IMG/VR virus record: IMGVR_UViG_3300048573_000453
Coordinates: 32,421-96,420 of that record
Strand: one strand, 5' to 3'
Source: a virus
Lineage: Duplodnaviria; Heunggongvirae; Uroviricota; Caudoviricetes
Length of the DNA stretch: 64,000 nt
Shown here: piece after piece, positions 3,702 to 45,182 of the stretch
Layout: every line of letters begins with the position of its first letter
Numbering within the stretch: the first letter of the stretch is position 1
Program-made: the position numbers and the translations under genes
The notes under the pieces: model-generated
Database searches by the model: none
What the model was told of the DNA's origin: nothing
What the model saw: only the letters and a program-made list of their open reading frames with translations

Positions 3702-3748
3702 TTTAGATTCCTTGAGTTGATGGCGAATTATACCGCACAAAAGTCTAC
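3702..3748 (-). promoter_or_regulatory. P1 copy 2
   Basis: TGCGGTATAATTCGCCATCAACTCAAGGAATCTAAAATG. Confidence 0.5.
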
Positions 3749-13334: not shown

Positions 13335-13853
13335 TCAAATTCCTAAAACTTTCGCGACTTGTTCAACCCTAGATCGAACGGGTCCAGTCAAAACATTATA
13401 CGGTATTTTGTGCGCCTCTAAGTAATCTTCGTAAAATTTTTCTTGCAGCAAGCTAAACTCTTCAGGACCCCTAGTGCCGTCATTCACAAATGGAAAATCC
13501 CGCTTGCATAAAAACACAAAATCATAGTTCCGATTTTCAGCTTGTTCAGTAATTGACATATCAACATAATTGTACCATACGTTAGAATAAAACATCGTTA
13601 CTAACGGAGTAGTATCACAAACCACAAAATCAATACTATTCTCTTTAGCATGAAGAACCGCTTTATCCTCCATGCGACATTGCACAGAACAAATATGACG
13701 CATATCGTCTTTGTTATAAATGTTCCCAATAAACTGGCCAAGAATGCGTCCATATTCTTGAACAACGGGGATTTCCAAAGACTGTGAAAGCGCATTTGCA
13801 AGAGTTGTCTTCCCAGAAGACTCTCCACCAATAAGAGCGATTTTTAAAGTCAT
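13335..13853 (-). CDS. ribosylnicotinamide kinase (NadR C-terminal-domain-like P-loop kinase)
   Basis: IALIGGESSGKTT Walker A in the NadR-RNK-like context; 4-nt overlap with the NMNAT gene. Confidence 0.65.
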   Translation of the reverse strand: MTLKIALIGGESSGKTTLANALSQSLEIPVVQEYGRILGQFIGNIYNKDDMRHICSVQCRMEDKAVLHAKENSIDFVVCDTTPLVTMFYSNVWYNYVDMSITEQAENRNYDFVFLCKRDFPFVNDGTRGPEEFSLLQEKFYEDYLEAHKIPYNVLTGPVRSRVEQVAKVLGI

Positions 13854-14377
13854 AGTTTGATTTCCGTTTCACAAATTCGAACGTCATTTTTATCAATGAC
13901 TGCTTTCAACATGATCTTTCTTACATCTGTATGAATGAACTGATGATGTATTGTACTGTCATTTCTTAGCAAAGTTGCACTAATGGGAACATTTTTTCGT
14001 GCTTTGTCGACTTCAAAATGCTTGACTGGCTTGCCCGATCTTTTTGAAAGATATGCTGCGAATCCAACGCCATAATCTTCAGATGTAAACACAATATCAG
14101 GAAGCATATTTGCAATCTTTGCTATTTGAAAACAGAATTCCCTATGAACATCTTCTCCCCCAAAGTCGTCGGGTATTCCTTCAGTTGGCATAATTACGGT
14201 GGCAGTTGGAAACCGAGATGCTAACATCTTTTTCCTAACACTTGCTGAGAACCCAAGATCCCTAGAAGTGTAAGAAATGATTAGCAGTTGGTCAACTTTT
14301 TCAAGCGCAGTGTTAATCAGCAGCTCGTGGCCAAAGTGCAACGGGCAAAATTTTCCAACCACCAATCCAATTGTCAT
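13850..14377 (-). CDS. NMN adenylyltransferase (NadR/NadM-type nucleotidyltransferase)
   Basis: GKFCPLHFGH (H/T)xGH nucleotidyltransferase motif near the N-terminus. Confidence 0.7.
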   Translation of the reverse strand: MTIGLVVGKFCPLHFGHELLINTALEKVDQLLIISYTSRDLGFSASVRKKMLASRFPTATVIMPTEGIPDDFGGEDVHREFCFQIAKIANMLPDIVFTSEDYGVGFAAYLSKRSGKPVKHFEVDKARKNVPISATLLRNDSTIHHQFIHTDVRKIMLKAVIDKNDVRICETEIKL

Positions 14378-14808
14378 TTTACTTCTGCGCCCAAGAGTTC
14401 AGATTTAACAGACCCGTCATCATTGACATACACTGTATCGTTTAGATTTAAACCTCTTACCCCAGTCTCAAATTTAAAAGTAAATGCTTTTCCAGCGTGG
14501 ATGACCCTGCTCGTGTGGCCCGAAGCTTGCGCAGAATACGAACCCGGGTTAAGTTTGGTCTCAACGGTTTCAGGCTCTTTAGCTTCTTGCGAAACTGGCT
14601 TTCCCAAGACTTTTGAACGAACCGAACCATCACCATCAACAGTAATGGCGTCAGGTACATTAAAACCCTTGACATAATTTTCGAATTTAAATACGAATGT
14701 TTTATCCCGATAGACAACTCGACTTTCGTTGCCTGATGCAATTGCGGGGTAAGTCCCAACTTGAAGGTTATCGCCGTTAAGTGATGATAATAAATTATAC
14801 ACGTTCAT
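14374..14808 (-). CDS. hypothetical protein with internal tandem duplication (start moved to ATG 14808)
   Basis: Two ~55-aa repeats (GTYPAIASGNESRVVYRDKTFVFKFE... / GSYSAQASGHTSRVIHAGKAFTFKFE...); GGAG RBS. Confidence 0.5.
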   Translation of the reverse strand: MNVYNLLSSLNGDNLQVGTYPAIASGNESRVVYRDKTFVFKFENYVKGFNVPDAITVDGDGSVRSKVLGKPVSQEAKEPETVETKLNPGSYSAQASGHTSRVIHAGKAFTFKFETGVRGLNLNDTVYVNDDGSVKSELLGAEVK

Positions 14809-15427
14809 TGTTTTGCTCCGTAATAATGATTTTCCATTTGTGCCATGCCCACCAAGCATGAACCCAAAATGCTGTGTACATGATTGCAGTAGGATACAAT
14901 TCTCGACTCCAATAAAGGGGAACTGCAACAGTGTTTACCAGGATCCAGAATGGCCAGTTTTCAAGTTTTCGGCGCATTAGGAGTAATTGTGCAACAACGC
15001 TAAATGTCAACACTAAACTGTCAACAAATGGTGCATAAGCCGTAGTAAATGTCTTTAGAAGTACGCCATAACAGATCGCAACAGATACTGCGCCAATAAA
15101 CATGATCAGAGAAGATTTAGTCGTGGCTTTAGAAATCTTCTCGCTTGGTTCAATGAATGAAACCTTCCAATCAGGATTGGCCCAGCTGTACCAACCAATA
15201 AACCCTGTTAGTACAAAGAACATTTGCAACGACACGTCTGCAAAGAGGTTGAACTGATAAAACAGCATAGCATACAATATCGTGCCGATAATCCCAATCC
15301 ACCAAGAATGGACACTGTTACGACCGGCTAAAAATACGCAGAGAACAGTTGCAAAAATTGCAGACCATTCAAGCCCGCTTACGTTCAAAAAAGCAGTAAA
15401 AATTTGATCAAACATAAAATTCCTCAC
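14795..15427 (-). CDS. pnuC: PnuC nicotinamide riboside transporter
   Basis: ~210 aa polytopic membrane protein with Trp-rich PnuC-like segments (WWIGIIG..., WYSWANPDW..., WVHAWWAWHKW). Confidence 0.65.
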   Translation of the reverse strand: MRNFMFDQIFTAFLNVSGLEWSAIFATVLCVFLAGRNSVHSWWIGIIGTILYAMLFYQFNLFADVSLQMFFVLTGFIGWYSWANPDWKVSFIEPSEKISKATTKSSLIMFIGAVSVAICYGVLLKTFTTAYAPFVDSLVLTFSVVAQLLLMRRKLENWPFWILVNTVAVPLYWSRELYPTAIMYTAFWVHAWWAWHKWKIIITEQNNERV

Positions 15428-15604
15428 AGTTCAAAATTGATTTATCAACCCGTAGATCCGGGCAAAAAGGCATCCTATTGGCCTATTGGCCTATTGTTCG
15501 ATCCAATGCCCCAATTACGTCATGTAAAGGCGTGAAATTGCAAATTGCTGATAAGGCAACCCAGCGAACAACGCCATCAACATAATTGTCGAGTGACACA
15601 TGTA

Positions 15605-15647
15605 AAAATCCCCTGAAATGTATTGTACTACAAATTCAGGGATTTCC
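15605..15647 (-). terminator. rho-independent terminator (minus strand), within the long pnuC upstream region
   Basis: ~11-bp stem AATCCCCTGAA/TTCAGGGATT then TTTTTACATG on the minus strand. Confidence 0.55.
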
Positions 15648-15662
15648 TAATGCTTTAAAGAA

Positions 15663-16046
15663 TTACAGCATTTTTTCCAGTTCCTCGATGCTCATATCTG
15701 CCAGTGCAGCATCCTTTTTATTCTGGATCAATTCCATGATGCGCTGTTTCTTAGCAGCAGTTTCACGTGCTGCATCCCGAATATTCTTTTCTTCGAGCTT
15801 AACCGCAATGATGTGCTTAACAACTTCGATTTGAGCTTCTAGAAGACTGTTGCTTTCGGTTTTGACTTCAACAAAAGAGGGTACGCTGCTAGCTTGGATT
15901 TCCTTGTGAAGTTGGCGAGCAACCCCATCTAGAGAAACGCCTGTGCTAGAAGTCAGCGGAAGTGCCCACAGATCTTCGGTAGTGATAAGACCTATTTTCG
16001 ACGAAAAACGGAAACCTTGGCGAGTTGCTTGTTCAAAAATGTTCAT
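15663..16046 (-). CDS. hypothetical protein (127 aa)
   Basis: ORF followed by a terminator hairpin. Confidence 0.5.
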   Translation of the reverse strand: MNIFEQATRQGFRFSSKIGLITTEDLWALPLTSSTGVSLDGVARQLHKEIQASSVPSFVEVKTESNSLLEAQIEVVKHIIAVKLEEKNIRDAARETAAKKQRIMELIQNKKDAALADMSIEELEKML

Positions 16047-16062: not shown

Positions 16063-18075
16063 TTAAAAAACGATGTTAATAACGCGTGCAGTTTTACCAG
16101 TTACCCGGCATACTACCTTATTTTCAACTGTACTGGAGAATCCAACTCCGCTCAATTGATCCTTCGTGAAGCTTGGCTTATTCTTACTTGCCAAAAGTTC
16201 AAATACTTTGCGGTGTGCATCCAAATCGCTGCGCAAGAATTCATTATAAAAGCCTCGCGAGGTTTCGTCATTCTCGCAGCCCTCAAGCATAAAGAAGTAA
16301 TGTTTATTACCGACCTGTTGCTGCCAATAATTCGGTGACAACATCATTGCGTGAACCTTCACAAATTCATTCGTTGAGATGCCCCAAACAGTTTGTTTCT
16401 TTGCAACACCTTTTGACCCCTCAATATCAATATTGCCTTTACCGTCAGAAGTCAGGATCGCAACTTCGGTATTGATTCCGCTTCGACCATTATCTTGAAA
16501 TTCAAAAGAGTGAATTGTCCCCAGAATCTGAATCTGAACGGTAAATCCTTTATTGGTTTCCTCTCGGCGCGACCACTGATTTACGTACAGACGATATTTT
16601 CCGGCCTTCATAGTCTTGGCGTTTGAGAAGAAAATATTTTCAACTGGTTGACGCGTAGTTCCGAATGCAGCATTCATGTCGATGTCTAGTTTACCGCCCG
16701 AACGGGCGGTACGAGTGCGGAATGAAATTTCATTACCACATGGGCAGATCAAATGCAAATCCAAATCATCATAATTAGACCAAGCCAAACGGCAGCAAAC
16801 GTCTGCATCTACGTTGCCTCCTGCGGCTTTCACACGTTCCTTGATGGCATCAGCAGTTTCGCCGCGATAAGACCAGCTAAAGTTGTTGTCCCATTTGAAA
16901 ATTCGCTCTGCAGTTGCATCGTCCGCTGTCACCAAGCTAACCATTTGATTGGCGTGCTTATTATCTAGCAGCAACTCAATAGAAGTTGCTGTTGGCAGGT
17001 ACTCGGCAATAAACTTTTCGATAGGTACGTCTTGTAATTTGTCCAGCTTTTTAGGAGCCGAAGAAGCCGTTGCTGACAAGTCTGCAAACACACTACCAGA
17101 CAAATCAGCTTTAATAGAGCGATCTGCGAACAGCACATCATTAATGGACACATCAGACAGGGAAGCAAACCGACGACTAAAAGCACTCATTAGCCCAAGT
17201 TCTTGAACCTTTTCTTTGGCCTGATTAATCATTTTTTCAGTTACCAAAGCGGTTGGCCGCTTGTAATTGTGCGGTGCTACCACAGTTTCAAATGCTTTAA
17301 CAGCAGTCTCGAGATCCATGCCTTTGCTTAGGTTATTCAGCAGGGTTCCAATTGCGCTGTTGTTAATTCGGGCGACTGCGGCATTGGTGGTAGCAGATTT
17401 TTCCCATGAAAACAATTCTTTATTTTCGGCTTTATCAAAAGCTTGTTTCAACGTTAGGAAGGAAGACACTGCAAACTTCTGTTCAGCTCCACGATATAGC
17501 GTATTCTGAGCAATCAGCTCCAATACGGTTTCCAAGGAATCGACTGTAAGCTCTGTCAAACCACGATGAAATACATGACGAGTAGATTCAAATTCACTCT
17601 TTTTAGGACCAATATTCTTTTCCGAAGCCTGCAGGCTTCGTGGAATTGTCAAGTAAAAGTGATCGTGGGGGATAACTTCATTGCCACCCGCCTTTTCAAA
17701 ATTGCGTTCAATGCCAAATTTTGGTTCTGCGGTCAAAAACACGCCAGAAATATCACATGACCGTACGTAAGCTGCAAGAGCATTTGAAACTTGTTGATAT
17801 TCTGGTTCGCCTTTGATGAGCGCATCCCAAATTGTATACACTTTACCGTCTTTAATGGCAACAGCACCTCCTACTTGGCGAATAACTGCTTTACAGCAAT
17901 TACAGTCGTGCTCTGTTTTAACTTTGTAAACTGGGTTCGAACCTTCTGGGAAGGACGAAAGATATACTTCCCAAATTTTGGTTTTGTCAATATTTGCTTG
18001 AAACAGTACTGCTCCATCAGCAGTCATGTCTTTGAATGTTTTAGCAACTGCAGCCCGAAAGTTTACAAAGTTCAT
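16063..18075 (-). CDS. large hypothetical protein with Cys clusters (670 aa)
   Basis: Long ORF; CNCCK and CPCG Cys motifs; no family recognised. Confidence 0.55.
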   Translation of the reverse strand: MNFVNFRAAVAKTFKDMTADGAVLFQANIDKTKIWEVYLSSFPEGSNPVYKVKTEHDCNCCKAVIRQVGGAVAIKDGKVYTIWDALIKGEPEYQQVSNALAAYVRSCDISGVFLTAEPKFGIERNFEKAGGNEVIPHDHFYLTIPRSLQASEKNIGPKKSEFESTRHVFHRGLTELTVDSLETVLELIAQNTLYRGAEQKFAVSSFLTLKQAFDKAENKELFSWEKSATTNAAVARINNSAIGTLLNNLSKGMDLETAVKAFETVVAPHNYKRPTALVTEKMINQAKEKVQELGLMSAFSRRFASLSDVSINDVLFADRSIKADLSGSVFADLSATASSAPKKLDKLQDVPIEKFIAEYLPTATSIELLLDNKHANQMVSLVTADDATAERIFKWDNNFSWSYRGETADAIKERVKAAGGNVDADVCCRLAWSNYDDLDLHLICPCGNEISFRTRTARSGGKLDIDMNAAFGTTRQPVENIFFSNAKTMKAGKYRLYVNQWSRREETNKGFTVQIQILGTIHSFEFQDNGRSGINTEVAILTSDGKGNIDIEGSKGVAKKQTVWGISTNEFVKVHAMMLSPNYWQQQVGNKHYFFMLEGCENDETSRGFYNEFLRSDLDAHRKVFELLASKNKPSFTKDQLSGVGFSSTVENKVVCRVTGKTARVINIVF

Positions 18076-18124
18076 AAATTACCTCTTAAAGTTTAAAAAT
18101 TAATTATACAACAAATTCTGGATT

Positions 18125-18925
18125 TTACCCAACTATTTTGACAACATCTATTTTTGCTTCCACTAGCTCAGAAGCCTCTCGCTTGATTCTCTGTGCATTT
18201 AAAATCAAAAAGACATTAAAGTCGCCGTAAGTCATAGTGGTAACCAAATTCTTAAAAGCCTTAGAAACAGCTTGTAGAAGGTGAGACTTTCGGCAAATGC
18301 CAAAATCAAAATATCGCTCAAACGCAATAACAGCAGTTTCTTCAACTGCGCAACGCATTTTATTCTCTGGTGCAGAATCATTCCATAATTTTGAACTAAA
18401 GAGCGGAGAATTCAGATTTTCCCTCATTAGTTCATTTGCAGGTCTGTTCGGGTGGGCAACCATTTCGTGGAGCTTGTCATGATCAATTTTTCGGTTAACT
18501 GCATCCACAAAAAATTCATCATTCATTTTATCCATCTTGATCCGCTTTTTAGAATGCACTTTTTCCCAATGCGTTCTCAACATCTTCAGTAAAGCATGAT
18601 CAATTTCTGCTCCGGCGACTTTCATCAAATGGATATGAAACATAGTCTTTTCCCACTTGATATCCCAAGCAGCATGAGAAACTTTAAGCGTGAACAAAAA
18701 GTTAAGATCTAAAAAGACATCATGCTTGTTATTTTCTAGCATGTATTCAGACGCTGAACCGAACCACGTGTTTTCCAAGAGAAGTTTGGATGGACAGGGA
18801 GAAGGCTGAAAGGGCAGATTTTGGGACATGATGTCAATATCACCAGGCGGTCGATTTAAATCGACCCAGTGCGATAAGGCGACAGACCCAATAACTAAAA
18901 ATTTACGTTCTGGTTTAGGCGTCAT
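18125..18925 (-). CDS. putative nucleotidyltransferase-fold protein
   Basis: hGS-x12-DIDI minimal NTase motif (IGSVALSHWVDLNRPPGDIDIM). Confidence 0.4.
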   Translation of the reverse strand: MTPKPERKFLVIGSVALSHWVDLNRPPGDIDIMSQNLPFQPSPCPSKLLLENTWFGSASEYMLENNKHDVFLDLNFLFTLKVSHAAWDIKWEKTMFHIHLMKVAGAEIDHALLKMLRTHWEKVHSKKRIKMDKMNDEFFVDAVNRKIDHDKLHEMVAHPNRPANELMRENLNSPLFSSKLWNDSAPENKMRCAVEETAVIAFERYFDFGICRKSHLLQAVSKAFKNLVTTMTYGDFNVFLILNAQRIKREASELVEAKIDVVKIVG

Positions 18926-28242: not shown

Positions 28243-28559
28243 GACATTGGTTGCAATTTTGAGTCCAAAATCATGTTTCCTACTCTATAATTGTCCGCTT
28301 TTTCTGAAATAAAATGACCTACTGCATAGACATGTCCTTCAAATACAAATTTATTAATTTCGTAATCGTACGTAACAATTTCTTCTGTATTGCCTGCAGA
28401 TCCTGGTCCTACCAAGTTCTTTTGATGATTAACCTCGGACCAGCGAAATGATGACTGAAATTCAGCCCATATTGTTTTACCATTTGCTGGTCCGCCAATA
28501 AACAGAATTTGTTGCATAATTTTCTTATAATGTGGACCGTGCCGGGATCGAACCAGCAA
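28224..28559 (-). CDS. hypothetical protein (111 aa)
   Basis: ORF. Confidence 0.45.
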   Translation of the reverse strand: MLVRSRHGPHYKKIMQQILFIGGPANGKTIWAEFQSSFRWSEVNHQKNLVGPGSAGNTEEIVTYDYEINKFVFEGHVYAVGHFISEKADNYRVGNMILDSKLQPMSCVVYH

Positions 28560-28607
28560 CCTGTATGCTTTAGCAAAGCAACCGCTCTCCCAATTGAGCT
28601 AACGGTC
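28532..28607 (-). tRNA. tRNA, anticodon ambiguous (TTGCTAA loop reads GCU; stem weak with 2 extra nt)
   Basis: 7-bp acceptor GGACCGT/ACGGTCC; D-arm GCTC-AATTGGGA-GAGC; T-arm GCTGG-TTCGATC-CCGGC; no encoded CCA. Confidence 0.6.
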
Positions 28608-28738
28608 CGTAAAATTTCTTATTTAGAACCCCAAGTAGCTTAAAACATTCAATCATTGCGATGTAAGAACTAGTAAAGATGTCGGTTCTTTTTTACGTTC
28701 TGAGTTGTTCTTGAAAAACTCGTCAATGTTTTCGTCGT
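28574..28738. repeat. direct repeat copy 1 (~165 bp, ~93% identical to 29567..29747)
   Basis: Alignment read by eye; covers tRNA 5' part, upstream region and a gene remnant. Confidence 0.85.
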
Positions 28739-28790
28739 GTTCAAGTTCCCCCAACTTATAAGGCACATCTCAGAAATGTTGATATTTTGC
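28652..28790 (-). pseudogene. remnant of a family-B paralog (N-terminal ~8 codons fused to C-terminal ~30 codons, with a frameshift)
   Basis: Encodes ...PYKLGELEHDENIDEFFKNNSERKKEPTSLLVLTSQ*; compare 29657..30262, which starts MKLSTLFEMPYQLGQF and ends ...ENIDEFFIWNNSEHKKEPTSLLVLTSQ*. Confidence 0.55.
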
Positions 28791-28803
28791 TACTGGCGGT
28801 AAT

Positions 28804-29418
28804 TCACTTTGGGTTAAGATAAATTATTTTTTGCTTATATTGCTCGTCAATGATGTCAACATGCCCAATTTCAAAATCTATTAAACTTCTATTTTTAACA
28901 ATTACTTCTCCCAATCCGTCGCCTATTTCTGAGATGTCAAACAGTACTTCTGCACGTTGGGTTGGAATAAAAAGCACAATTCCGGTCCAATTTTTTAAAT
29001 CTTCATCTTTCGTTGCATATAATTCAGCAACCTGTTTTGAAAGCGACCAAGATTCATATCCCTTAAACGGAATATTGATTTGCTTAGTTTGTTCTAGCTG
29101 CTTTATAATTGGAGATCGATTACTAAAAACCATTCCGCGAAAAAGCGTTTCCGATTTCAATTTTGTGGACAAATCTTTAAAATATTTGTCATAGATTTTT
29201 CTTGAACCCACCATATTTGACATAAATTCTGATGCCCAATAGCATAATGGATGGGTTAGTTCAAATTCATCATACAAATCTTCAATTTCTCCATCTTTCA
29301 TTTCATACTTGTTGTTCAAGTATTTGCCAATTTGCATTTCTTTTGTCAATTTGAAACTAACACCGCCAATATTGACGTGTTCTGCGGACGTAGCATTTAA
29401 AATTTCTTTGAGCAGCAT
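28804..29418 (-). CDS. hypothetical protein, possible ADP-ribosyltransferase-like (ModA/ModB-sized)
   Basis: TLFRGMVF (Arg), GYESWSLS (S-x-S), GLGEVIV (single Glu); weak. Confidence 0.3.
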   Translation of the reverse strand: MLLKEILNATSAEHVNIGGVSFKLTKEMQIGKYLNNKYEMKDGEIEDLYDEFELTHPLCYWASEFMSNMVGSRKIYDKYFKDLSTKLKSETLFRGMVFSNRSPIIKQLEQTKQINIPFKGYESWSLSKQVAELYATKDEDLKNWTGIVLFIPTQRAEVLFDISEIGDGLGEVIVKNRSLIDFEIGHVDIIDEQYKQKIIYLNPK

Positions 29419-29523
29419 AAATTCCCCTATAGATCACCGTATTTACTTGATTCTGCATGGAAAACAACTCAAGAGCTAAGGCAAGTTCTTTGATTACTGA
29501 GGCGGGTTTTGCAGGTGTTGAAC

Positions 29524-29559
29524 CCACTACCAACTACCAACTACCAACTACCAACTACC
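29524..29559. repeat. heptamer tandem repeat (CAACTAC)x5
   Basis: ccactac + 4 x caactac. Confidence 0.9.
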
Positions 29560-29566
29560 TGATCCT

Positions 29567-29602
29567 AAAGCAACCGCTCTCCCAATTGAGCTAACAGTCT
29601 GT
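29567..29602 (-). pseudogene. truncated tRNA (5' 36 nt, diverged copy of the tRNA at 28532..28607)
   Basis: ACAGACTGTTAGCTCAATTGGGAGAGCGGTTGCTTT vs ACGGACCGTTAGCTCAATTGGGAGAGCGGTTGCTTT. Confidence 0.6.
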
Positions 29603-29747
29603 AAAATTTCTTATTTAGAACCCCAAGTAGCTTAAAACGTTCAATCATTGCGACAATCATTGTGAAGTAAGAACTAGTAAAGATGTCGGTTCTTTTTTAT
29701 GTTCTGAGTTGTTCCAAATGAAAAACTCGTCAATGTTTTCGCCGTTG
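29567..29747. repeat. direct repeat copy 2 (~180 bp including a 9-bp indel)
   Basis: Matches 28574..28738; overlaps the 3' end of CDS 29657..30262. Confidence 0.85.
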
Positions 29748-30262
29748 TAAATTATTATTTCGCCTGTTTCATCCCTTAACCAATCTTCAAGAGCATCGCT
29801 CCAAATTCTGATTACAAATTTCCTAATTAGGCTTTCTGTTGCCATCTTTTTCCAGAGAGCTTTGCCGCCATCAAACTGTTCAAAATCAGGGACAATTGTA
29901 AAACCGTATCTAGCAAGAAGAACATACATTGCCATTGCAAGGTTTCTGTTTCTAAACTTCGGTTGATTGTACACTGTATGAACTTGTAATTCATTATCTA
30001 CTGGCACCCCCGCTCTATTATCAAAGCGCACAGATAGAACTATTTCATTCCTTTCTGCACCTTTAGACTTGATGGTGACCGTAGCACCACCTTTGTCATT
30101 AGAAAGCCAAAATCTAAATCGATCTTCACCCTGTTCAAGTTCCCCAAGAAAATGATTTTCTCGTTCCAAACCCGCATCTGAAGGTGTAGCAATGTTGCTG
30201 ATAGATGGCGGTTGAAACTGTCCAAGTTGATAAGGCATTTCAAACAACGTTGATAATTTCAT
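29657..30262 (-). CDS. paralog family B protein (full length, 201 aa)
   Basis: ORF; homologous to 25486..26124, 35558..35965 and the fragments at 28652 and 33579. Confidence 0.55.
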   Translation of the reverse strand: MKLSTLFEMPYQLGQFQPPSISNIATPSDAGLERENHFLGELEQGEDRFRFWLSNDKGGATVTIKSKGAERNEIVLSVRFDNRAGVPVDNELQVHTVYNQPKFRNRNLAMAMYVLLARYGFTIVPDFEQFDGGKALWKKMATESLIRKFVIRIWSDALEDWLRDETGEIIIYNGENIDEFFIWNNSEHKKEPTSLLVLTSQ

Positions 30263-30873
30263 AACTTTACAAATGGGCCAGTTTTTAAGAATTCTGTTAG
30301 GGACGCTCTTCTAGGGTCAATCCATTCGGCATTATTAATTTGTTTTAAGCTTACTAAGAATTCATTTGGCCGATTTCTTCGTTGGTAAAAATATCCATTT
30401 TTCTGTCTTGCAATTCTTCGTGCAAGCATTTCGTAAAGTTTTACAGTTTGCTGGAACTGTTTATTATTTTGGCTATGAAAGTATTCGGCCGAAAAATAAA
30501 ATGGAACGTCACTAATCTTATCAGCTAAAGCATTTAGAACCACCCCATAGACAGTTGACGGTACAACATCAGAAGATTTAGCGGGTTTTAAAAATGCTTG
30601 GTTGCTATCTTCGTTTCTAAAGAAACATACTTCAAAAGCATTTTCGACTGTAACTGCTGGGCCAATCTGTATTATAAATTGCTGTTCGTCCCAAATGAAT
30701 GCTGTTAATTCATAATCCCCATGTTTTTGCCAAACTAGGTCAAGTTTAGTATCAAAAATTTCGTAAAGAAAACTATCCATAATTGCTTTCTCCAAATTTA
30801 AAAACTCCCTGGGCACAAATCCCAGGGAGTTTTTAAACGGTTTTGGAGGAGCATAATAGAATCGAACTATCAC
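30259..30873 (-). CDS. paralog family A protein (204 aa)
   Basis: Shares ...WQ(K/Q)(H/N)G..EL(T/A)(A/S)F... and ...YGVVLNA... with 55903..56469 and 56466..57023. Confidence 0.5.
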   Translation of the reverse strand: MIVRFYYAPPKPFKNSLGFVPREFLNLEKAIMDSFLYEIFDTKLDLVWQKHGDYELTAFIWDEQQFIIQIGPAVTVENAFEVCFFRNEDSNQAFLKPAKSSDVVPSTVYGVVLNALADKISDVPFYFSAEYFHSQNNKQFQQTVKLYEMLARRIARQKNGYFYQRRNRPNEFLVSLKQINNAEWIDPRRASLTEFLKTGPFVKL

Positions 30874-30933
30874 CGTTTCATCAACGGTGGGACGGTTTTC
30901 AAGACCGTGTGTCTGCCATAGACCCTACACTCC
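30844..30933 (-). tRNA. tRNA-Ser(TGA), type II
   Basis: Anticodon arm ACGGT-CTTGAAA-ACCGT; long variable arm CCGTT-GATGA-AACGG; T-loop TTCGATT; 3' CCA encoded. Confidence 0.8.
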
Positions 30934-30947
30934 AAAAATACTTTGAT

Positions 30948-31031
30948 TGGATGCCCCAGGTATCGAACCTGGCATGTTATAAAAACGCGGAGTGTTCAAT
31001 TCCGGCCACCTCCTTAGTGGTATAGACATCC
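30948..31031 (-). tRNA. tRNA-like, type II with long variable region; anticodon ambiguous (9-nt loop ATTGAACAC)
   Basis: Acceptor GGATGTC/GGCATCC; D-arm TACC..GGTG; T-arm CCAGG-TTCGATA-CCTGG; weak 4-bp anticodon stem. Confidence 0.4.
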
Positions 31032-31044
31032 AATTTTAAAACCC

Positions 31045-31095
31045 CTTTGTCCGGCCAGCTGGATTCGAACCAGCGACTTATTGCTTAGCTTACCA
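31045..31095 (-). other. tRNA 3'-half-like segment (T-arm GCTGG-TTCGAAT-CCAGC + acceptor 3' strand TGGCCGG)
   Basis: Base-pairs over 13 nt with the 5'-half-like segment at 31510..31556. Confidence 0.35.
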
Positions 31096-31401
31096 CTATA
31101 GCTTTCGCTACTGAGAATTTTTATCTTCCCGCGCGTGGTCTGAGCTTTGTCTTCATCTGTTCTAGATGGTAGCCGTCAAGTCTCTACACGTTCCTTTTTC
31201 AAGGCTTCGCTCGGCGTTGGCATAAAAATACTGTCCTCTGGATTAAATGTATTTATGCAGCGTTCGCCGAATTTGACTACATTCACAATAAACATCCCTA
31301 TTTATGTGCCCCATTAGAACTGTTTAACATATTTGCTTCTTATTCATTGTCGTAGAATTATTGTAACTCAAATTATTCTATCTAGAATAATAAATTAAAA
31401 T

Positions 31402-31494
31402 GTACTTTGCTCGCCAGAGTGGATTCGAACCACCATTGACTCCGTTACGGTACTACGCTTTAGAAGAGCGCTCCGGTACTGGCGAGCAAAGTAC
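31402..31494 (-). other. inverted-repeat-bounded tRNA-like element (16-bp IR GTACTTTGCTCGCCAG)
   Basis: Contains T-arm GGTGG-TTCGAAT-CCACT and an anticodon-like hairpin GCGCT-CTTCTAA-AGCGT (UCU); no canonical D-arm. Confidence 0.35.
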
Positions 31495-31509
31495 AATCAG
31501 GTAAAAGGT

Positions 31510-31556
31510 TAAATACTCAAAATTACTCTATCCATCTGAGTTATGGCCGGACAAAG
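31510..31556 (-). other. tRNA 5'-half-like segment (acceptor 5' strand CCGGCCA + D-arm ACTC-AGATGGAT-AGAGT)
   Basis: 13-bp inverted repeat with 31045..31057 (CTTTGTCCGGCCA / TGGCCGGACAAAG). Confidence 0.35.
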
Positions 31557-31594
31557 AGGTCTTTCTAATCATATACAAATTTCCAAAACATAAA

Positions 31595-31708
31595 TGGTAG
31601 GCCGTGTTGGACTCGAACCAACGACCAAAGGATTATTCTTCGGCTTCTTTTGTTATTATCCAACAGAATGCCTGAGTCCTCTGCTCTAACCAACTGAGCT
31701 AACGGCCC
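31595..31708 (-). tRNA. tRNA with expanded anticodon region (114 nt; ~38 extra nt between anticodon-stem halves)
   Basis: Acceptor GGGCCGT/ACGGCCT + A + CCA; D-arm GCTC-AGTTGGTT-AGAGC; T-arm GTTGG-TTCGAGT-CCAAC; stem halves GAGGA ... TCCTT are 44 nt apart. Confidence 0.55.
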
Positions 31709-31890
31709 ACACTTTTTGCATTCTCCAATTATACCATACTTTTCTATCTTTACAAATTTATTTTTGTTTTACTAAAGAATAAACAGTTCGATTTCTTCTT
31801 CAGAAGGAGTTTTTCTGCCAAGAATCTTGTAAAAAGCTTTTGAATTTTCTATCCATTCCGGGGAAGCAAATGCAAAATTTACGTTTCTAT

Positions 31891-32238
31891 TCACCCACTT
31901 GTAAAGCGCATCGTATAATTTTTTCGACTTTCAACTAATCCCGAAGTTTTATCAACGGCGATTAAAATGAAATCCGGCCCTAGTTCCTGAAGTTTTGGGA
32001 CAGCAGCATTTAACACTGCCCCAATTAGTTTGGCAGCAGGAATTTCTCCACCTGTAGCCTTATTGGTGCCATTTACAGCAAACCCAAAATCTATAAGATG
32101 TTTTGATTCTACATCGTATTCATCAATTTGTACATGACAAAGTTTGCCATCAATGATAAATTCCCCGATGTGCCTATGCCCAACATTTTCCCATTTGACT
32201 ATTGGTTTAGTGTTTAGAATTTCAAGCAAATTCATCAA
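31891..32238 (-). CDS. hypothetical protein (115 aa), possibly a short family-A relative
   Basis: ORF; ...KLIGAVLNAAVPKLQEL resembles the family-A YGVVLNA segment. Confidence 0.45.
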   Translation of the reverse strand: MMNLLEILNTKPIVKWENVGHRHIGEFIIDGKLCHVQIDEYDVESKHLIDFGFAVNGTNKATGGEIPAAKLIGAVLNAAVPKLQELGPDFILIAVDKTSGLVESRKNYTMRFTSG

Positions 32239-32810
32239 AGTAGATTTTCAATTGAATTAATCATAGGCAGCGCGATATGTTGCTTTCTAACTTTACATTT
32301 ATCCCACGTGTATTTGGTTCCACCGTCTTTTGGGATGTCCCCTCTGCCAAAGGTATACGCAAGCATAAAATCACATCCTGCTGCAACTTTATCATTTCTT
32401 CCAAACATTCCGGAATAACCGTTAGATTTTGGCTCGTATGTAACGAACTGTTTTGAATCTATGACTTCTGCTATTTGTCGGAGCGAATCATACCCTATTA
32501 TTTGGCTGAACTTTTCATGGTAAAAATTGCATGCCCTAGAGGTCTTATTGTAAGCTGCATCGCTAAAACGTTTTGTCTGAAGACAGAAAGGTGCAGGTAA
32601 ATGTAAAATTATATCCTTACATTTTCCTGTCAAAAACAATTCGACAGCTAAATGATCTGCCCATGCAGCTCCACCAGAAATCACCGTATCATCTTCACGA
32701 ACATCTGAAGAAACATCCCGAATCATCCAGCGCCATAATTCTTTAGACATCGGAATCAATTTATCCCTTCCAGCAGTTCCTATAATAGCAATTTTCATCT
32801 CTACTCCCAA
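32235..32810 (-). CDS. SLOG/DprA-like Rossmann-fold protein
   Basis: IAIIGTAGRD ... ISGGAAWADHLAVE pattern typical of the SLOG (Smf/DprA-LOG) superfamily. Confidence 0.4.
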   Translation of the reverse strand: MGVEMKIAIIGTAGRDKLIPMSKELWRWMIRDVSSDVREDDTVISGGAAWADHLAVELFLTGKCKDIILHLPAPFCLQTKRFSDAAYNKTSRACNFYHEKFSQIIGYDSLRQIAEVIDSKQFVTYEPKSNGYSGMFGRNDKVAAGCDFMLAYTFGRGDIPKDGGTKYTWDKCKVRKQHIALPMINSIENLL

Positions 32811-32816
32811 AGCTGC

Positions 32817-33368
32817 TTAATCTTCATGCAACGCAAAGACATAATCATGAAGACCGTTAATCTTTTTACAAATTGACTGACTTTCAACAATTAAAGCTTT
32901 CTCATAATTATTGTAAAGCTCAACTGGAACAATGTCAGTTATTTCATGCGTTTTTAAATCAATCATTTTTACAGGCCACTGATCGCGCAATTTGTCCCAT
33001 AGCCCGATTGTTTCTCTCGACTGTTCAACGTCTGAAATCAAGGCGAAGTTTAGAGTGTTGTATATAAACCGATATAGGTTTACTATAATTCCTCTCCTCC
33101 TATAGTTTGGGGAACACCATGAGCGCTTGACCATTAGTACTGACTTGTTTGAAGGCAGGTTTAAATCATCTATTGTTGTTAAAAGTAGCGCTGCAATTAT
33201 GCTATCATCCTTTTTCACGATGAAAACTTTAATATCCCCAGATGATCCAAGTTCAATTGTATAATCTTGGAGATAGTCGAGGCACACGATTTTAAAATTA
33301 GTAATTTTGTTTAAGTCAAATCCCAAATTAGGTTGACTTACAACTCGTGCAATCTCAGATAATTTCAT
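32817..33368 (-). CDS. hypothetical protein (183 aa)
   Basis: ORF. Confidence 0.45.
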   Translation of the reverse strand: MKLSEIARVVSQPNLGFDLNKITNFKIVCLDYLQDYTIELGSSGDIKVFIVKKDDSIIAALLLTTIDDLNLPSNKSVLMVKRSWCSPNYRRRGIIVNLYRFIYNTLNFALISDVEQSRETIGLWDKLRDQWPVKMIDLKTHEITDIVPVELYNNYEKALIVESQSICKKINGLHDYVFALHED

Positions 33369-33578
33369 AATTAGAAATTTTAAAATGGGATAAATTCACC
33401 GACATTCAATCCGACCAGACTAAAATACGGAACAAGCTTGCCAAACCGTATCAGCCCAGTAAGTTGCCAAGCTTATTCAACGGTCTCTGCGCAATCTATG
33501 GTAGTTATTTTTCCGTTACGTAATTTCCGCTTTTTGACTCACTTGAATTTTTTGCATTTCAAACCTTTAAAAATTGAA

Positions 33579-33690
33579 CTATTTTGATGTAAGCACTAAT
33601 AACGTTGTCGCTTCATTGTGCTGGGAAATATCTTTCCAAATTTGGTCATCATCGAGATTTTCAGCATTATAATTACGCGGTTCTATAAAA
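33579..33690 (-). pseudogene. C-terminal fragment of a family-B paralog displaced by the IS insertion
   Basis: Encodes ...NYNAENLDDDQIWKDISQHNEATTLLVLTSK*; compare ...IYNGENIDEFFIWNNSEHKKEPTSLLVLTSQ*; no start codon. Confidence 0.6.
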
Positions 33691-34908
33691 ATCTATAAAA
33701 CTCACTAAACGCTTCACAGAAGCTGCCTTTGGAAGAACTTCCTTAGGTCTTACTGCCCCTCCACGTCTGTACTCGGTTAATTCAGCCGAGGTCATGTCAT
33801 AAAGGTCCTTTACACCTTCATTTAAAATATTGATAGCCGCATTTAAGTCGCGATCATGGCTTGAGCCGCATATTGGGCATGTCCATTCTCTTATGGATAA
33901 ATCCATCGTTTCCATTTTATGGCCGCAGCAAGAACACGTCTTACTCGATGGGAACCAAGTATCTATCTTATGAAATGTGCGGCCATACCACCTACTTTTG
34001 TATTCCAGCATTGAAATAAAAGTGGACCAACTTGCATCAAGTATGGATTTTGCCAAACTATGATTCTTAACCATGTTTTTAACTTTTAGAGTTTCAGTAC
34101 AAATAACATCGTAATTTTCTATTAACCAACTCGACAGGTTATGGTAAATGAACTTGCGCTGATTTACAATATCCCTATGGATTTTCGCAACTTTGATTTT
34201 CTGTTTATTGTACCTTTTAGAACCCTTTGTTTTTCTGCTTAAATGCTGCTGTGACCGTTTTAGTTTAGATTGGTTTTCTCTGAACCATCTTGGATTGGAA
34301 ATTTGCGTACCATCACTTAAGATGAGCAAGTTTTTCAATCCGAGATCAATACCGATTGAGCGACCAGTATTTTGTTTCAATTCTATTTCTTCTTCAACTA
34401 AAATTGAAACAAAATATTGCCCACTTGGATTTTTAGAAATTGTGACAGATTTTGGTTTACCAGTAAAAGGTCTATCTATGATTACTTTTACTGGAGACAT
34501 TTTTGGAAATTTAATAAAACCTGCTTTAATTTGTTCAAATTTTTCTAAATGCATTGAAGCCGCAGGAATCCTAAATGATTCATTGCCACCCCGCTTTTTA
34601 AATTTTGGTCTTCCCAGTTTAGCTTTACGGTTTTTAGAGAAAAATTGCTTTTTGGTTTCATCAAAATCGATTCGTTTTTGCTGCAAGGCATAACTAATAG
34701 CATCTTTAAGCCATGGAAAGTTCTCATCATCTTTCAAAATCTTCTCATTCATTGGTCGGTTTGGGCCTTCTTTTGAAAAAGAATTAAAATTGGCAACTAA
34801 CTGATTCCAAATGAAGCGAACACATCCAAAATTTTGGAGAAGAAATTTCTCTTGCTTATTATTAGGATATATTCGGTACTTAAAAGCCTTAAGAACTGTA
34901 TTTGTCAT
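33673..34908 (-). CDS. tnpB: TnpB (OrfB) RNA-guided-nuclease-family protein of an IS607/IS200-605-type element
   Basis: N-terminal KYRIYPNNKQEKFLLQNFGCVRFIWN; zinc finger CSCCGH...CPICG; RuvC-III DRDLNAAINI. Confidence 0.85.
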   Translation of the reverse strand: MTNTVLKAFKYRIYPNNKQEKFLLQNFGCVRFIWNQLVANFNSFSKEGPNRPMNEKILKDDENFPWLKDAISYALQQKRIDFDETKKQFFSKNRKAKLGRPKFKKRGGNESFRIPAASMHLEKFEQIKAGFIKFPKMSPVKVIIDRPFTGKPKSVTISKNPSGQYFVSILVEEEIELKQNTGRSIGIDLGLKNLLILSDGTQISNPRWFRENQSKLKRSQQHLSRKTKGSKRYNKQKIKVAKIHRDIVNQRKFIYHNLSSWLIENYDVICTETLKVKNMVKNHSLAKSILDASWSTFISMLEYKSRWYGRTFHKIDTWFPSSKTCSCCGHKMETMDLSIREWTCPICGSSHDRDLNAAINILNEGVKDLYDMTSAELTEYRRGGAVRPKEVLPKAASVKRLVSFIDFYRTA

Positions 34909-35501
34909 TTTTCTGAATCGTTAGCTAATTCTTGAACCAATTTTTCCGTATTCCGTTTGCTGCGGCGCTGTCCATAAATTCTTGCGCAAAAAGATGTAAT
35001 GACGGACACAAAATCCTGAACAATGTCTTCTTTATCTGACTCTACATTATTCACTACATCGATTTCAATGCCATTAGAATTTAATAGCTGTTCAATATAA
35101 TTGAAACCGAATCTAGTCAGCCGATCCTTATGTTCAACTACTAATTTAGTAAAATCCTGTTCCTTAAGAAGCTTTTCCAGTTTTGGCCTCTTATCATTTA
35201 GTCCAGATCCAAATTCTGTAACGACTTTAGCAACTTTGTAACCTCTAGCGTTACAATATGAAATCAACCTTTCGGATTGAGTCTCAAGATTAGATTTATT
35301 TGCAGTCGAAGAAACACGACAATAAATCACTACGCGTTCTTCTTCCTTGGCCTTTATACCAAGGAATTTGTTGTAAGTTTCAATATCAACATAATTCATT
35401 GAACCAATTTTATGAAATTGTATTTTTCCAGCCTTCTTCCAATTCCACAGCGTCATCCTGGTTACACCAAGATCTGCAGCAAATTTTTTAAGTTTAATCA
35501 T
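34905..35501 (-). CDS. tnpA: IS607-type serine recombinase transposase TnpA (MerR-like HTH + resolvase catalytic domain)
   Basis: VIYCRVSSTANKSNLETQ catalytic Ser region; ...VTEFGSGLNDKRPKLEKLL...VVEHKDRLTRF. Confidence 0.8.
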   Translation of the reverse strand: MIKLKKFAADLGVTRMTLWNWKKAGKIQFHKIGSMNYVDIETYNKFLGIKAKEEERVVIYCRVSSTANKSNLETQSERLISYCNARGYKVAKVVTEFGSGLNDKRPKLEKLLKEQDFTKLVVEHKDRLTRFGFNYIEQLLNSNGIEIDVVNNVESDKEDIVQDFVSVITSFCARIYGQRRSKRNTEKLVQELANDSEK

Positions 35502-35557
35502 TTGATTTCCTATATAAGATATATTATATTTATACTTTTATTTATAGGAATTGAGAT

Positions 35558-35965
35558 TTAAATATAATATTGGGTAAAATCTGAAACAATAGTAAATCCG
35601 TATCGCGCCAAAACTACGTAAAGCGCCATTGCTAATCCCTGGGTTTGAAACTTTGCGTGAGTATAAACAGATTCAACTTGCAGCTCATTTTCTACTGGAA
35701 GGTTTGAACGGTTATTAAAACGCACTTTAGTTATAGTTAATTGACGAGGTTGGCCAATATCGTCTACGCCTGAAGTAGTAACTTCGGCATAAAATTTACC
35801 CTTATTTAGCCAAAAATGGTATTCAGTTCCACCTTTTTCAAGGGTTCCCAAAAAATCATTCATACGACGCAAATTTTCAAGAGATGGATAATTGTCCATC
35901 TTGATAATGGGCCTCGCATCTTGGTCCATATGATATGGGCCCTCAAAAAGTTCTTGGGTTTTCAT
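35558..35965 (-). CDS. paralog family B protein, 3'-truncated by the IS insertion (start at ATG 35965)
   Basis: MKTQELFEGPYHM... aligns to MKLSTLFEMPYQL...; ends ...SDFTQYYI* where intact paralogs continue. Confidence 0.55.
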   Translation of the reverse strand: MKTQELFEGPYHMDQDARPIIKMDNYPSLENLRRMNDFLGTLEKGGTEYHFWLNKGKFYAEVTTSGVDDIGQPRQLTITKVRFNNRSNLPVENELQVESVYTHAKFQTQGLAMALYVVLARYGFTIVSDFTQYYI

Positions 35966-36078
35966 GTCAATTTTTATTTTAGGTCTTGATTTAACTGCCA
36001 GTGCGTCGGTTTCCCAACGACAGTTTAGCAAACTGCTCCCTTAACCAACTTAACCACTCGTGCAAAAATCCATTTTTT

Positions 36079-36156
36079 TGGTGCCGCTTATCTGACTCGA
36101 ACAGGCGGCACCTATTGCTTACACGGCACGTACTCTTCTAACTGAGCCAAAGCAGC
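36079..36156 (-). tRNA. tRNA-like, 78 nt with CCA, degenerate anticodon arm (possible pseudogene)
   Basis: Acceptor GCTGCTT/AAGCGGC; D-arm GCTC-AGTTAGAA-GAGT; T-loop TTCGAGT; anticodon stem not convincingly pairable. Confidence 0.4.
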
Positions 36157-36162
36157 AATAAC

Positions 36163-36238
36163 TGGCTCCCTAGCGTGGGATCGAACCACGGACAACTTGA
36201 TTAACAGTCAAGCGCTCTACCGACTGAGCTACTAGAGA
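36163..36238 (-). tRNA. tRNA-Asn(GTT)
   Basis: D-arm GCTC-AGTCGGT-AGAGC; anticodon arm CTTGA-CTGTTAA-TCAAG; T-arm CGTGG-TTCGATC-CCACG; CCA encoded. Confidence 0.85.
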
Positions 36239-36246
36239 ATAAATTT

Positions 36247-36324
36247 TGGTTGCGGATGCTGGATTCGAACCAGCGACCTCTTGATTATGAGCCAAGTGAG
36301 ATAACCATGCTTCTCTAATCCGCA
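36247..36324 (-). tRNA. tRNA-Met/Ile2(CAT)
   Basis: Acceptor TGCGGAT/ATCCGCA; anticodon arm CTTGG-CTCATAA-TCAAG; T-arm GCTGG-TTCGAAT-CCAGC; CCA encoded. Confidence 0.8.
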
Positions 36325-36337
36325 ACAAATTTAAAAT

Positions 36338-36412
36338 TGGCGTCCCTACCTGGAATCGAACCAGGTCCTGCAGCGTGAAAGGCTATCGATCTAACCAGTA
36401 ATCTATAGGGAC
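36338..36412 (-). tRNA. tRNA-Glu(TTC)
   Basis: Acceptor GTCCCTA/TAGGGAC; anticodon loop CTTTCAC; T-arm CCTGG-TTCGATT-CCAGG; CCA encoded; 4-nt variable loop. Confidence 0.75.
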
Positions 36413-43167: not shown

Positions 43168-43388
43168 GACGCAACAATCTTCATTGCTGAAAGTGCAACT
43201 GCAAAACCAACTAGCCAGGCTACGCCAATTTGTGCAAGATATTCAGGCTTTACTTCGGGATCATATTCTGCAATTTGCATTGCCCACCATCCAGCAGTAA
43301 AAATACCAAAGACTGTAGAAAGTGTAAAAGCCATTTCATCTGTCATTTTATTCTCCAATTGGTTCAACAAATTTATCATCACGAACAT
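43164..43388 (-). CDS. small membrane protein (74 aa)
   Basis: Hydrophobic ORF. Confidence 0.4.
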   Translation of the reverse strand: MFVMINLLNQLENKMTDEMAFTLSTVFGIFTAGWWAMQIAEYDPEVKPEYLAQIGVAWLVGFAVALSAMKIVAS

Positions 43389-44765: not shown

Positions 44766-45182
44766 ATGGCTAAAAATCAAGCACCGACCTTGTGCGTTGA
44801 AGATACGGGGGAAGCATCTTACGTGTCCCTCTTGGAATATAAAAGGGAACATTATCTCTGCGTTATTGATAGGATTTCATCTGATGAAATTACGGCATAC
44901 GTGCTAGATTATGCCGAAGCTGAAAATATACCAATTCAACAATTTCTAAGCGTAGCAAATCTTTGGTTTTATGGAGCCTCTGATGATCACCCGCTATCTG
45001 TAGAGCTCGCAGCAAAAGGCCTTACAGACGTGCTTTCGCCAATCTATAAGACCTTTGATGCTAACTATGTTTCACGTATAATTGGCACTACTTTTAATCA
45101 TGCTAATACGGAATCGAAAATAAAACGAAGAAAAGCAATTCCTGTAGTCGAAGGAACGCCAGTTCGACTTAAAAAGCGGTGA
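44766..45182 (+). CDS. hypothetical protein (138 aa), plus strand
   Basis: AAAGGAATTT RBS; late-promoter-like CATAAATAAT upstream; divergent from the ligase gene. Confidence 0.5.
   Translation: MAKNQAPTLCVEDTGEASYVSLLEYKREHYLCVIDRISSDEITAYVLDYAEAENIPIQQFLSVANLWFYGASDDHPLSVELAAKGLTDVLSPIYKTFDANYVSRIIGTTFNHANTESKIKRRKAIPVVEGTPVRLKKR

Follow-up and report, generated by a model that had tools for sequence, protein, structure and literature searches.

A 64,000-nt stretch of DNA from an uncultured phage of the Caudoviricetes (IMG/VR record IMGVR_UViG_3300048573_000453, positions 32,421-96,420; hereafter the window, whose positions serve as coordinates throughout) carries four adjacent genes on the minus strand. 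They encode a PnuC-family transporter, a small protein of an uncharacterised phage family that we call ORF-X (ORF, open reading frame) and, as two separate polypeptides, the nicotinamide mononucleotide (NMN) adenylyltransferase (NMNAT) and ribosylnicotinamide kinase (RNK) domains of a NadR-like enzyme. We consider it likely that these genes form a NARP3-type operon for the salvage of nicotinamide riboside (NR), in which the NadR-like enzyme has undergone fission and which would replenish nicotinamide adenine dinucleotide (NAD+) against NAD+-depleting defences. The pathway and its anti-defence rationale have already been published, so that the central idea of a preliminary description of this DNA is correct but not new. 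What is new is the architecture, namely a conserved gene fission, additional ORFs at the gene junctions, the scar of a deletion, and a linkage to the NARP2 pathway in relatives.

Phage NadR homologues that lack the helix-turn-helix (HTH) domain and lie beside pnuC were recognised in a virus-wide survey (Iyer et al. 2022; PMC9503650), were presented as a hypothetical third pathway by Osterman et al. 2024 (bioRxiv 10.1101/2024.02.11.579819), and have also been described in jumbo phages (PMC11662467). The experimental demonstration of NARP3 came in August 2026 (Yan et al., Sci Adv 2026; PMC13464706). In Escherichia phage TrudiRoth and other T5-like phages it consists of Bas30_87, a PnuC-like protein, and Bas30_86, an HTH-less NadR-like protein (PMC13464706). 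This pair, in which the enzyme is fused, imports NR, makes NAD+, and rescues phages from the Sir2-HerA and DSR1 systems (PMC13464706). The preliminary description had proposed that the window genes import NR and rebuild NAD+ in the face of NAD+-depleting defence; this has been demonstrated for the fused homologue and, for the window phage, would hold by homology.

The four co-directional genes are tightly packed in the order pnuC (14795..15415, minus strand, as for all four), ORF-X (14374..14808), NMNAT (13850..14377), and RNK (13335..13853). The pnuC and ORF-X genes overlap by 14 nt, and the ORF-X/NMNAT and NMNAT/RNK junctions each consist of an ATGA overlap. All four ORFs were located as initially described, except that pnuC most likely starts at ATG 15415, with a GAGGA Shine-Dalgarno sequence ahead of it, rather than at GTG 15427, which falls within that Shine-Dalgarno sequence; gene callers likewise give a 206-aa product on six independent contigs. 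The intergenic region upstream of pnuC therefore measures 247 nt (15416..15662) instead of the 235 nt first reported. The window phage was recovered on 14 independent contigs from several metagenomes, and a megablast of the locus against cultured phages gave no match. The co-occurrence of these genes is not a matter of chance, because the order PnuC-NMNAT-RNK recurs on at least seven diverged metagenomic contigs.

In profile searches the transporter matches PF04973 (E=3.5e-45) and phrog_1880, and it passes the curated NR-transporter equivalog TIGR01528 with 84.9 bits against a cut-off of 42.45. Its earlier depiction as a Trp-rich polytopic protein agrees with the presence of 14 Trp among 206 residues and of about seven hydrophobic or Trp-rich segments. 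Comparison with NmPnuC (PDB 4QTN; E=8.7e-13) reveals conservation of Q171, W182, W185, and N189, the first of these being the Gln of the pseudo-symmetric second repeat, together with the changes Q99 to Gly and Y217 to Phe. Of the three NR-coordinating residues of Bas30_87 (N45, Q94, and N180), only N180 is kept; it corresponds to N161 of the window protein.

The two enzymes (175 aa for NMNAT and 172 aa for RNK) divide the NadR models between them. NMNAT covers positions 1-165 of TIGR01526 (E=1.9e-17) and RNK positions 164-316, and on phrog_3462, a family of fused phage enzymes, they occupy positions 2-169 and 166-334, respectively. RNK has a further match to AAA_28 (E=3.5e-26). Among solved structures, the best homologue of each half is PDB 9x6f/9x6h, a nicotinamide-nucleotide adenylyltransferase of 357 residues (9x6f: E=2.8e-11 for NMNAT and 1e-9 for RNK), and RNK additionally matches the NadR of Haemophilus influenzae (1LW7; E=2.9e-6). 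The HTH domain is absent: the NMNAT motif begins at residue 8, and the match to the full-length NadR model NF005988 begins at model position 65. The catalytic core of NMNAT spans residues 1 to about 156 and contains the GxFxPxHxGH motif (GKFCPLHFGH, residues 8-17) and the ISATxxR motif (ISATLLR), while RNK has a Walker A GGESSGKT (GGESSGKTT, residues 9-17), an EYGR motif, a Walker B DT (CDTT), and a lid NDGTR. The preliminary description had named GKFCPLHFGH and GGESSGKTT and had recognised a co-directional set of PnuC with separate, translationally coupled NMNAT and RNK genes and no HTH domain. Profile matches and conserved catalytic residues support these assignments.

We also joined the window halves end to end and aligned them with three fused enzymes, those of a T5-like Salmonella phage, Bacillus phage Kirov, and Caulobacter phage C2. 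The sequences align colinearly, and the motifs G-KF-P-GH, F-SE, D-R-(I/V)S-T-R, G-ES-GK-T, EYGR, DT, and DG-R are invariant. The numbering of Bas30_86 was mapped onto the window through the T5-like sequence, which has exactly the residues named in the NARP3 paper. The structure 9x6f is taken to be that of Bas30_86 itself, because its chain residues match those named in the same paper with a 6-residue offset. Residues at which mutation abolishes the function of Bas30_86 (K10/F11, S37, F110, S112, V139/I141, E230, and D275; PMC13464706) are kept in the window, as is K168.

The separation of NMNAT and RNK falls in the interdomain linker of NadR and is not a peculiarity of the window. Separate genes were also found in related metagenomic loci designated L010, L014, L017, L018, L019/L020, L021, and L022, at 46-77% identity; for NMNAT, identity to the window is about 75% in L010, L014, L021, and L022, about 57% in L017 and L018, and about 46% in L019/L020. 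L017 was read from a 90-kb contig, and its protein recurs on one of up to 330 kb; the contig of L018 measures 113 kb. The enzyme is fused in all 20 other IMG/VR loci found with the NMNAT profile (35-51% identity) and in the cultured phages examined (Caulobacter phage C2, Bacillus phage Kirov, and Salmonella phage 3-29), in which the fused gene adjoins pnuC. Campylobacter phages encode a stand-alone AAA_28 kinase, but with no NMNAT or PnuC gene adjacent to it, and so do not provide an instance of the split module in culture. A neighbour-joining tree of NMNAT plus RNK groups the split forms into a single clade (bootstrap 77%), which is nested within a set of fused forms from metagenomes. Because the split forms are monophyletic within the fused ones, the simplest reading would be a single fission event that was then retained.

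Selection has acted on each part of the module. From comparisons of the window with L010, L021, and L022 (and with L017 for RNK), the ratio of nonsynonymous to synonymous substitution rates (dN/dS) is 0.07-0.20 for PnuC, NMNAT, and RNK, with about 0.07 for PnuC, 0.09-0.20 for the two enzyme halves, and 0.12-0.20 for RNK. For ORF-X it is 0.07-0.16 in the comparisons where dS was computable. These ratios place all four genes under purifying selection, which argues that they are functional genes and not pseudogenes.

Based on the above data, we propose the following scheme. PnuC would let NR diffuse into the infected cell, where the stand-alone RNK would phosphorylate it to NMN, trapping NMN inside, and the stand-alone NMNAT would join NMN and ATP to give NAD+. 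The ATGA overlap could keep the two halves translationally coupled, and these probably still act as a complex. During infection the module would replenish NAD+, most plausibly outrunning Sir2, TIR, DSR, and similar defences. Its transcription would be bounded upstream by a terminator-like hairpin, with no riboswitch control.

This arrangement shares with NARP3 a PnuC-family gene beside NadR-type NMNAT and RNK domains, the lack of an HTH domain, the status of a phage-borne accessory module, and the predicted conversion of NR to NMN and then NAD+. It differs from NARP3 in having two polypeptides in place of one bifunctional enzyme, and four genes, with pnuC first and the 144-aa ORF-X between pnuC and NMNAT, in place of two. 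The NR site of PnuC also differs, in that N45 and Q94 are not kept and the second-repeat Gln is retained instead, and the window phage is large, uncultured, and equipped with tRNAs and tRNA-repair genes. The NadR of Escherichia coli, Salmonella, and H. influenzae (1LW7), working with PnuC (4QTN), has the same two catalytic domains and the same coupling, in which phosphorylation by RNK traps the NR brought in by PnuC; the window set, however, has no HTH repressor, consists of two chains, has diverged below the equivalog cut-offs, and is phage-encoded and co-operonic with pnuC. NARP2 (NadV/Nampt plus NatV, an NMNAT-Nudix protein, as in KVP40; Osterman et al. 2024) likewise ends in the adenylylation of NMN, but it uses nicotinamide and phosphoribosyl pyrophosphate rather than imported NR, and its NMNAT is of the NadM type and fused to Nudix.

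Several observations weigh against the proposed scheme. The most serious concerns PnuC: the Gln equivalent to Bas30_87 Q94 and NmPnuC Q99 has been replaced by Gly throughout the split clade, and N45 by Thr. Q94 of Bas30_87 is essential for NR binding (PMC13464706). The mode of substrate recognition by PnuC is uncertain because of these two replacements and would be the main caveat. On the enzyme side, E80 of Bas30_86 is Asp in the window, and P84, G89, and D115 are not strictly conserved, although these three positions and R167 vary among the other fused phage homologues too. With 63 bits against 341 and 40 against 201, the halves fall well short of the curated cut-offs of the NadR equivalogs TIGR01526 and NF005988. 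Identity to the closest characterised homologue is only about 35%, and in comparison with the NARP3 enzyme NMNAT is about 35% and RNK at most 33% identical. In addition, the modelled NR site of Bas30_86 (K163, R167, and K168; PMC13464706) straddles the split point, and catalysis could be affected. Since this modelled site straddles the split linker, the NMNAT and RNK products are expected to associate with each other.

The same biochemistry might have been favoured by another selective pressure, with the module acting as a general metabolic booster in NAD-poor hosts or environments, or supplying NAD+-consuming enzymes of the phage. We regard this as a minority possibility, and it would not exclude a role against defence. 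What speaks for it is partly the context of the module in relatives. In L017 (1385-6021), L018 (1740-5977), and L020 (1-6390), on contigs of about 50-330 kb, genes for a NatV-like protein (NMNAT-Nudix) and for NadV/NAMPT are directly followed by the split PnuC-NMNAT-RNK genes, and some relatives thus combine NARP2 and split NARP3 in a single NAD+ gene cluster. It is this direct succession that ties the split module to NAD+ metabolism. Homologues of NadV and NatV were not found in the 64-kb window. Large phages often have several routes of NAD+ synthesis (PMC9503650, PMC11662467), and ADP-ribosyltransferase-like proteins are encoded within a few kb of the NAD+ module in relatives, with an ART-PolyVal protein in L010 (16392-16444) and a weak Mod_ADP_RT match in L021 (710-1186). 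Against the booster role, a search of the window for ADP-ribosyltransferase genes yielded no counterpart of the L021 protein, and the window encodes an ATP-dependent DNA ligase (43348..44667, minus strand), so that the NAD+ demand of a phage LigA-type ligase would not be the reason for the module. Moreover, the only experimental test of a phage PnuC plus NadR module found a defence-dependent benefit (PMC13464706).

ORF-X (144 aa) could be a functional fourth component of the pathway, for instance a subunit that binds, scaffolds, or regulates the split enzyme or PnuC, but we find this doubtful. As the preliminary description had noted, it is a tandem-domain protein: two domains of about 58 aa have arisen by internal duplication, the halves being 50% identical (E=7e-20). 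ORF-X has no match in Pfam, NCBIfam, or PHROG, a search of viral contigs found nothing, and only two close homologues exist among 5.8 billion clusters. An exhaustive profile search collected 65 proteins, mostly single-domain forms of 60-80 aa or tandem forms of about 145 aa, and no annotation is attached to any of them. One of these, P0007 (179 aa), has the domain at its C-terminus and an N-terminal part that resembles RelE/YafQ toxins by eye only, with no Pfam match. An AlphaFold2 model from a 14-sequence alignment shows an all-beta protein with two small beta-barrels (pLDDT, predicted local distance difference test, 78.8) and no recognisable ligand-binding fold.

A role in the pathway is favoured by the translational coupling of ORF-X within the operon, by its purifying selection, by the constancy of its position in the slot between pnuC and NMNAT in five lineages (the window, L010, L014, L021, and L022), and by its restriction to a sub-clade that also has the split enzyme. 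However, it is missing from the split lineages L017, L018, and L019, its more distant family members L015 and L016 lie on phage-like contigs with no NAD genes nearby, and it evolves faster than its neighbours, with 57-65% identity compared with 83-85% for PnuC. Unrelated small ORFs at the same junctions in other lineages suggest an insertion hotspot. In our view, ORF-X entered the operon as an accessory gene and probably takes no part in the chemistry.

The junctions themselves differ among lineages. Between pnuC and NMNAT, the place of ORF-X is taken by an unrelated 63-aa ORF in L019 and by nothing in L017 and L018. Between NMNAT and RNK, there is an ORF of 117 aa in L010 (8910-9263), L014 (1471-1824), and L022 (2230-2583), and one of 109 aa in L021 (5494-5823), with a weak match to the toxin-like DUF4258 (E=0.0028, below the cut-off); the L014 junction contains an extra 81-aa ORF, L019 has ORFs of 59 aa and 70 aa, the latter Cys/His-rich, and in L017 and L018 the two halves abut. 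These patterns suggest that the gene junctions are hotspots of insertion and deletion.

A trace of such a deletion is present in the window. Its NMNAT ends in LKAVIDKNDVRICETEIKL, which matches the C-terminus of the 117-aa ORF, LKTVYDKNNSQIYDAEIKL. Two blastn blocks between the window and L010 or L014 overlap exactly at 13911..13926 (minus strand), where the 16-bp sequence ATGTAAGAAAGATCAT is common to the 3' end of the NMNAT gene and a site within the 117-aa ORF. This C-terminal match and the two blocks overlapping on a 16-bp microhomology show that the window lineage deleted the DUF4258-like ORF in frame, leaving on NMNAT a 19-aa tail (13850..13909 including the stop codon, minus strand) as its scar.

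Enzymes encoded in pieces are familiar from large virulent phages, as in the T4 topoisomerase (gp39/gp60) and in Aeromonas phage Aeh1, the NrdA of which is split by the mobE homing endonuclease. The window enzyme resembles these cases in being split at a domain boundary, with small mobile or accessory ORFs at the split in some lineages; the separately translated pieces stay functional there and are predicted to do so here. It differs in that the inserts are DUF4258-like, zinc-ribbon, and other small proteins, with no recognisable homing endonucleases. One could go further and suppose that fission gave a heteromeric NR kinase/NMN adenylyltransferase whose junctions serve as a landing pad, and that ORF-X and the DUF4258-like ORF are counter-defence or regulatory factors. 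This is a long shot, but if true, these proteins could bind NAD-derived signals, inhibit an NADase, or gate PnuC.

That the transporter and the kinase act on another nucleoside or vitamin, and do not constitute an NR pathway at all, seems distinctly improbable. The PnuC family does include carriers of thiamine, riboflavin, and deoxynucleosides, AAA_28 kinases are diverse, and RNK also obtains weaker matches to PHROG families annotated as thymidylate kinase; the replaced first-repeat Gln of the NR site and the Campylobacter phage kinases unlinked to NAD genes point in the same direction. Nevertheless, the window kinase matches the RNK half of the NadR models specifically and colinearly, and it always adjoins a NadR-type NMNAT, an enzyme that can yield nothing but a pyridine dinucleotide. 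The transporter exceeds the curated threshold for NR transporters, and relatives place the module beside NadV and NatV.

The region upstream of pnuC had been suggested to be a regulatory RNA leader on account of a tandem repeat and a stable hairpin. Both elements exist. The 8-nt repeat CAATAGGC is present in 2.9 copies at 15474..15496 (minus strand; chance expectation 0.00), and the hairpin with a U-tract (UUUUU) occupies 15604..15647 (minus strand), 15 nt beyond the stop codon of the preceding gene (15663..16046), which encodes a phrog_2018 protein. The hairpin has a folding energy of -17.6 kcal/mol (z=-3.65; none of 200 shuffles was as stable) and is nearly identical in L010, L011, and L021, where DNA identity in the coding flanks is only about 75-80%. 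A simple terminator scan missed it, its loop exceeding 8 nt. It is most likely an intrinsic terminator or a 3' stabiliser of the upstream transcript, a reading that would follow from its U-tract, from its position after the upstream stop, and from its retention in relatives that have none of the remaining leader. The repeat and the hairpin loop TTTGTAGTACAATACATTT each occur only once in the window, and a repeated regulatory motif was rejected on this ground.

A riboswitch or attenuator responding to NAD+, NR, or NMN within these 247 nt is very unlikely. NAD+ riboswitches are known upstream of bacterial pnuC genes, the whole region folds better than its shuffles (z=-3.23), and a second, weak hairpin (GGCAU...AUGCC followed by UUUUU) lies just upstream of the ribosome-binding site. 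However, the folding signal comes entirely from the terminator hairpin, and the 175 nt at 15416..15590 fold no better than shuffled sequence (z=-0.83). In a cmscan of 15300..15800 with E<=10, Rfam gave only a chance snoRNA match (E=0.28, below the gathering score), and a scan of the whole window at the gathering threshold found tRNAs only, with no NAD+ riboswitch of either the nadA (class I) or the pnuC-motif (class II) type. The spacer between the hairpin and pnuC (15416..15603, minus strand) is lineage-specific rather than a conserved leader: it is present only in near-identical copies of the window phage, is missing in L010 and L011, and has no diverged homologues in which covariation could be sought. 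Judged from gene coordinates, the slot in L022 is equally short, extending from a stop at 621 to the beginning of pnuC at 708, and the more distant L017 and L018 have no intergenic region ahead of pnuC. In L021 the same slot (3735-3908) holds an ORF for a 57-aa hydrophobic small membrane protein with a strong AGGAG ribosome-binding site, to which the spacer has no significant homology. The leader proposed in the preliminary description is thus not borne out.

Two minor features of this region may be mentioned. A possible small ORF of 28 aa lies at 15515..15601 (minus strand), and a weak promoter-like match (9/12) lies at 15606..15579 (minus strand), such sites not being enriched over shuffles. 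A promoter in the hairpin loop (TACAAT/TAAAAT, with an upstream TTGAAA in L010) would be speculation; in the window only 3 of the 6 positions of its -35 element match, and it went unflagged in the scan.

Lastly, that the split enzyme is a decaying remnant of a frameshifted or interrupted nadR is hardly credible: fused forms are the rule, in 20 of 20 IMG/VR relatives and the cultured phages examined, and NMNAT bears a foreign 19-aa tail, but the split has been kept with intact motifs across lineages down to about 45% identity, both halves have a dN/dS of 0.09-0.20, each has its own start codon at the ATGA overlap, and the split sequence was recovered on 14 independent contigs.

The module is embedded in an array of early or non-structural large-phage genes, all on one strand, which includes a clamp-loader-like AAA protein and several tRNAs. 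Just upstream of it (16063..18925, minus strand) are genes for a 670-aa DUF8224 protein (phrog_1735) and a 266-aa DUF7275 protein; homologues of the former at about 47% identity occur in 551 records of phages with widely differing hosts (Caulobacter phiCbK-like, Serratia, Salmonella, Klebsiella, and Bacillus). Genes for tRNA maturation and repair accompany the phage tRNA genes at 45169..47290 and 57026..57829 (minus strand) and comprise a nucleotidyltransferase with a PolyA_pol head (CCA-adding type), an RlaP-like nucleotidyltransferase, and a homologue of the Thg1-like tRNA-His guanylyltransferase. In 28532..36412 (minus strand) the tRNA calls of ARAGORN and Rfam disagree: Ser(tga) at 30844..30933 and Phe at 30947..31032 are called by ARAGORN only, and 31410..31485 and 31598..31708 by Rfam only, the last being unusually long (111 nt) and possibly interrupted. 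Near the tRNA clusters, a TnpB/IS605 OrfB-like protein of 411 aa (33673..34908, minus strand) has HTH_OrfB_IS605, OrfB_IS605, and Cas12f1-like TNB domains.

NAD+ depletion is a widespread bacterial strategy against phages, and NARP3 is the newest of three known routes by which phages rebuild NAD+. The gain made here is incremental, the biochemistry and its purpose being already known. Our findings extend NARP3-type modules beyond the T5-like phages of Enterobacteriaceae to a clade of large uncultured phages and indicate that the bifunctional enzyme tolerates division into two polypeptides. A search that expects NadR to be fused, or the operon to have two genes, would miss the split clade, and NAD+ reconstitution in phages would be undercounted. 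The inserted ORFs, ORF-X among them, are candidate accessory counter-defence genes, and the split itself may be viewed as a natural experiment on the channelling of NMN between the kinase and adenylyltransferase sites.

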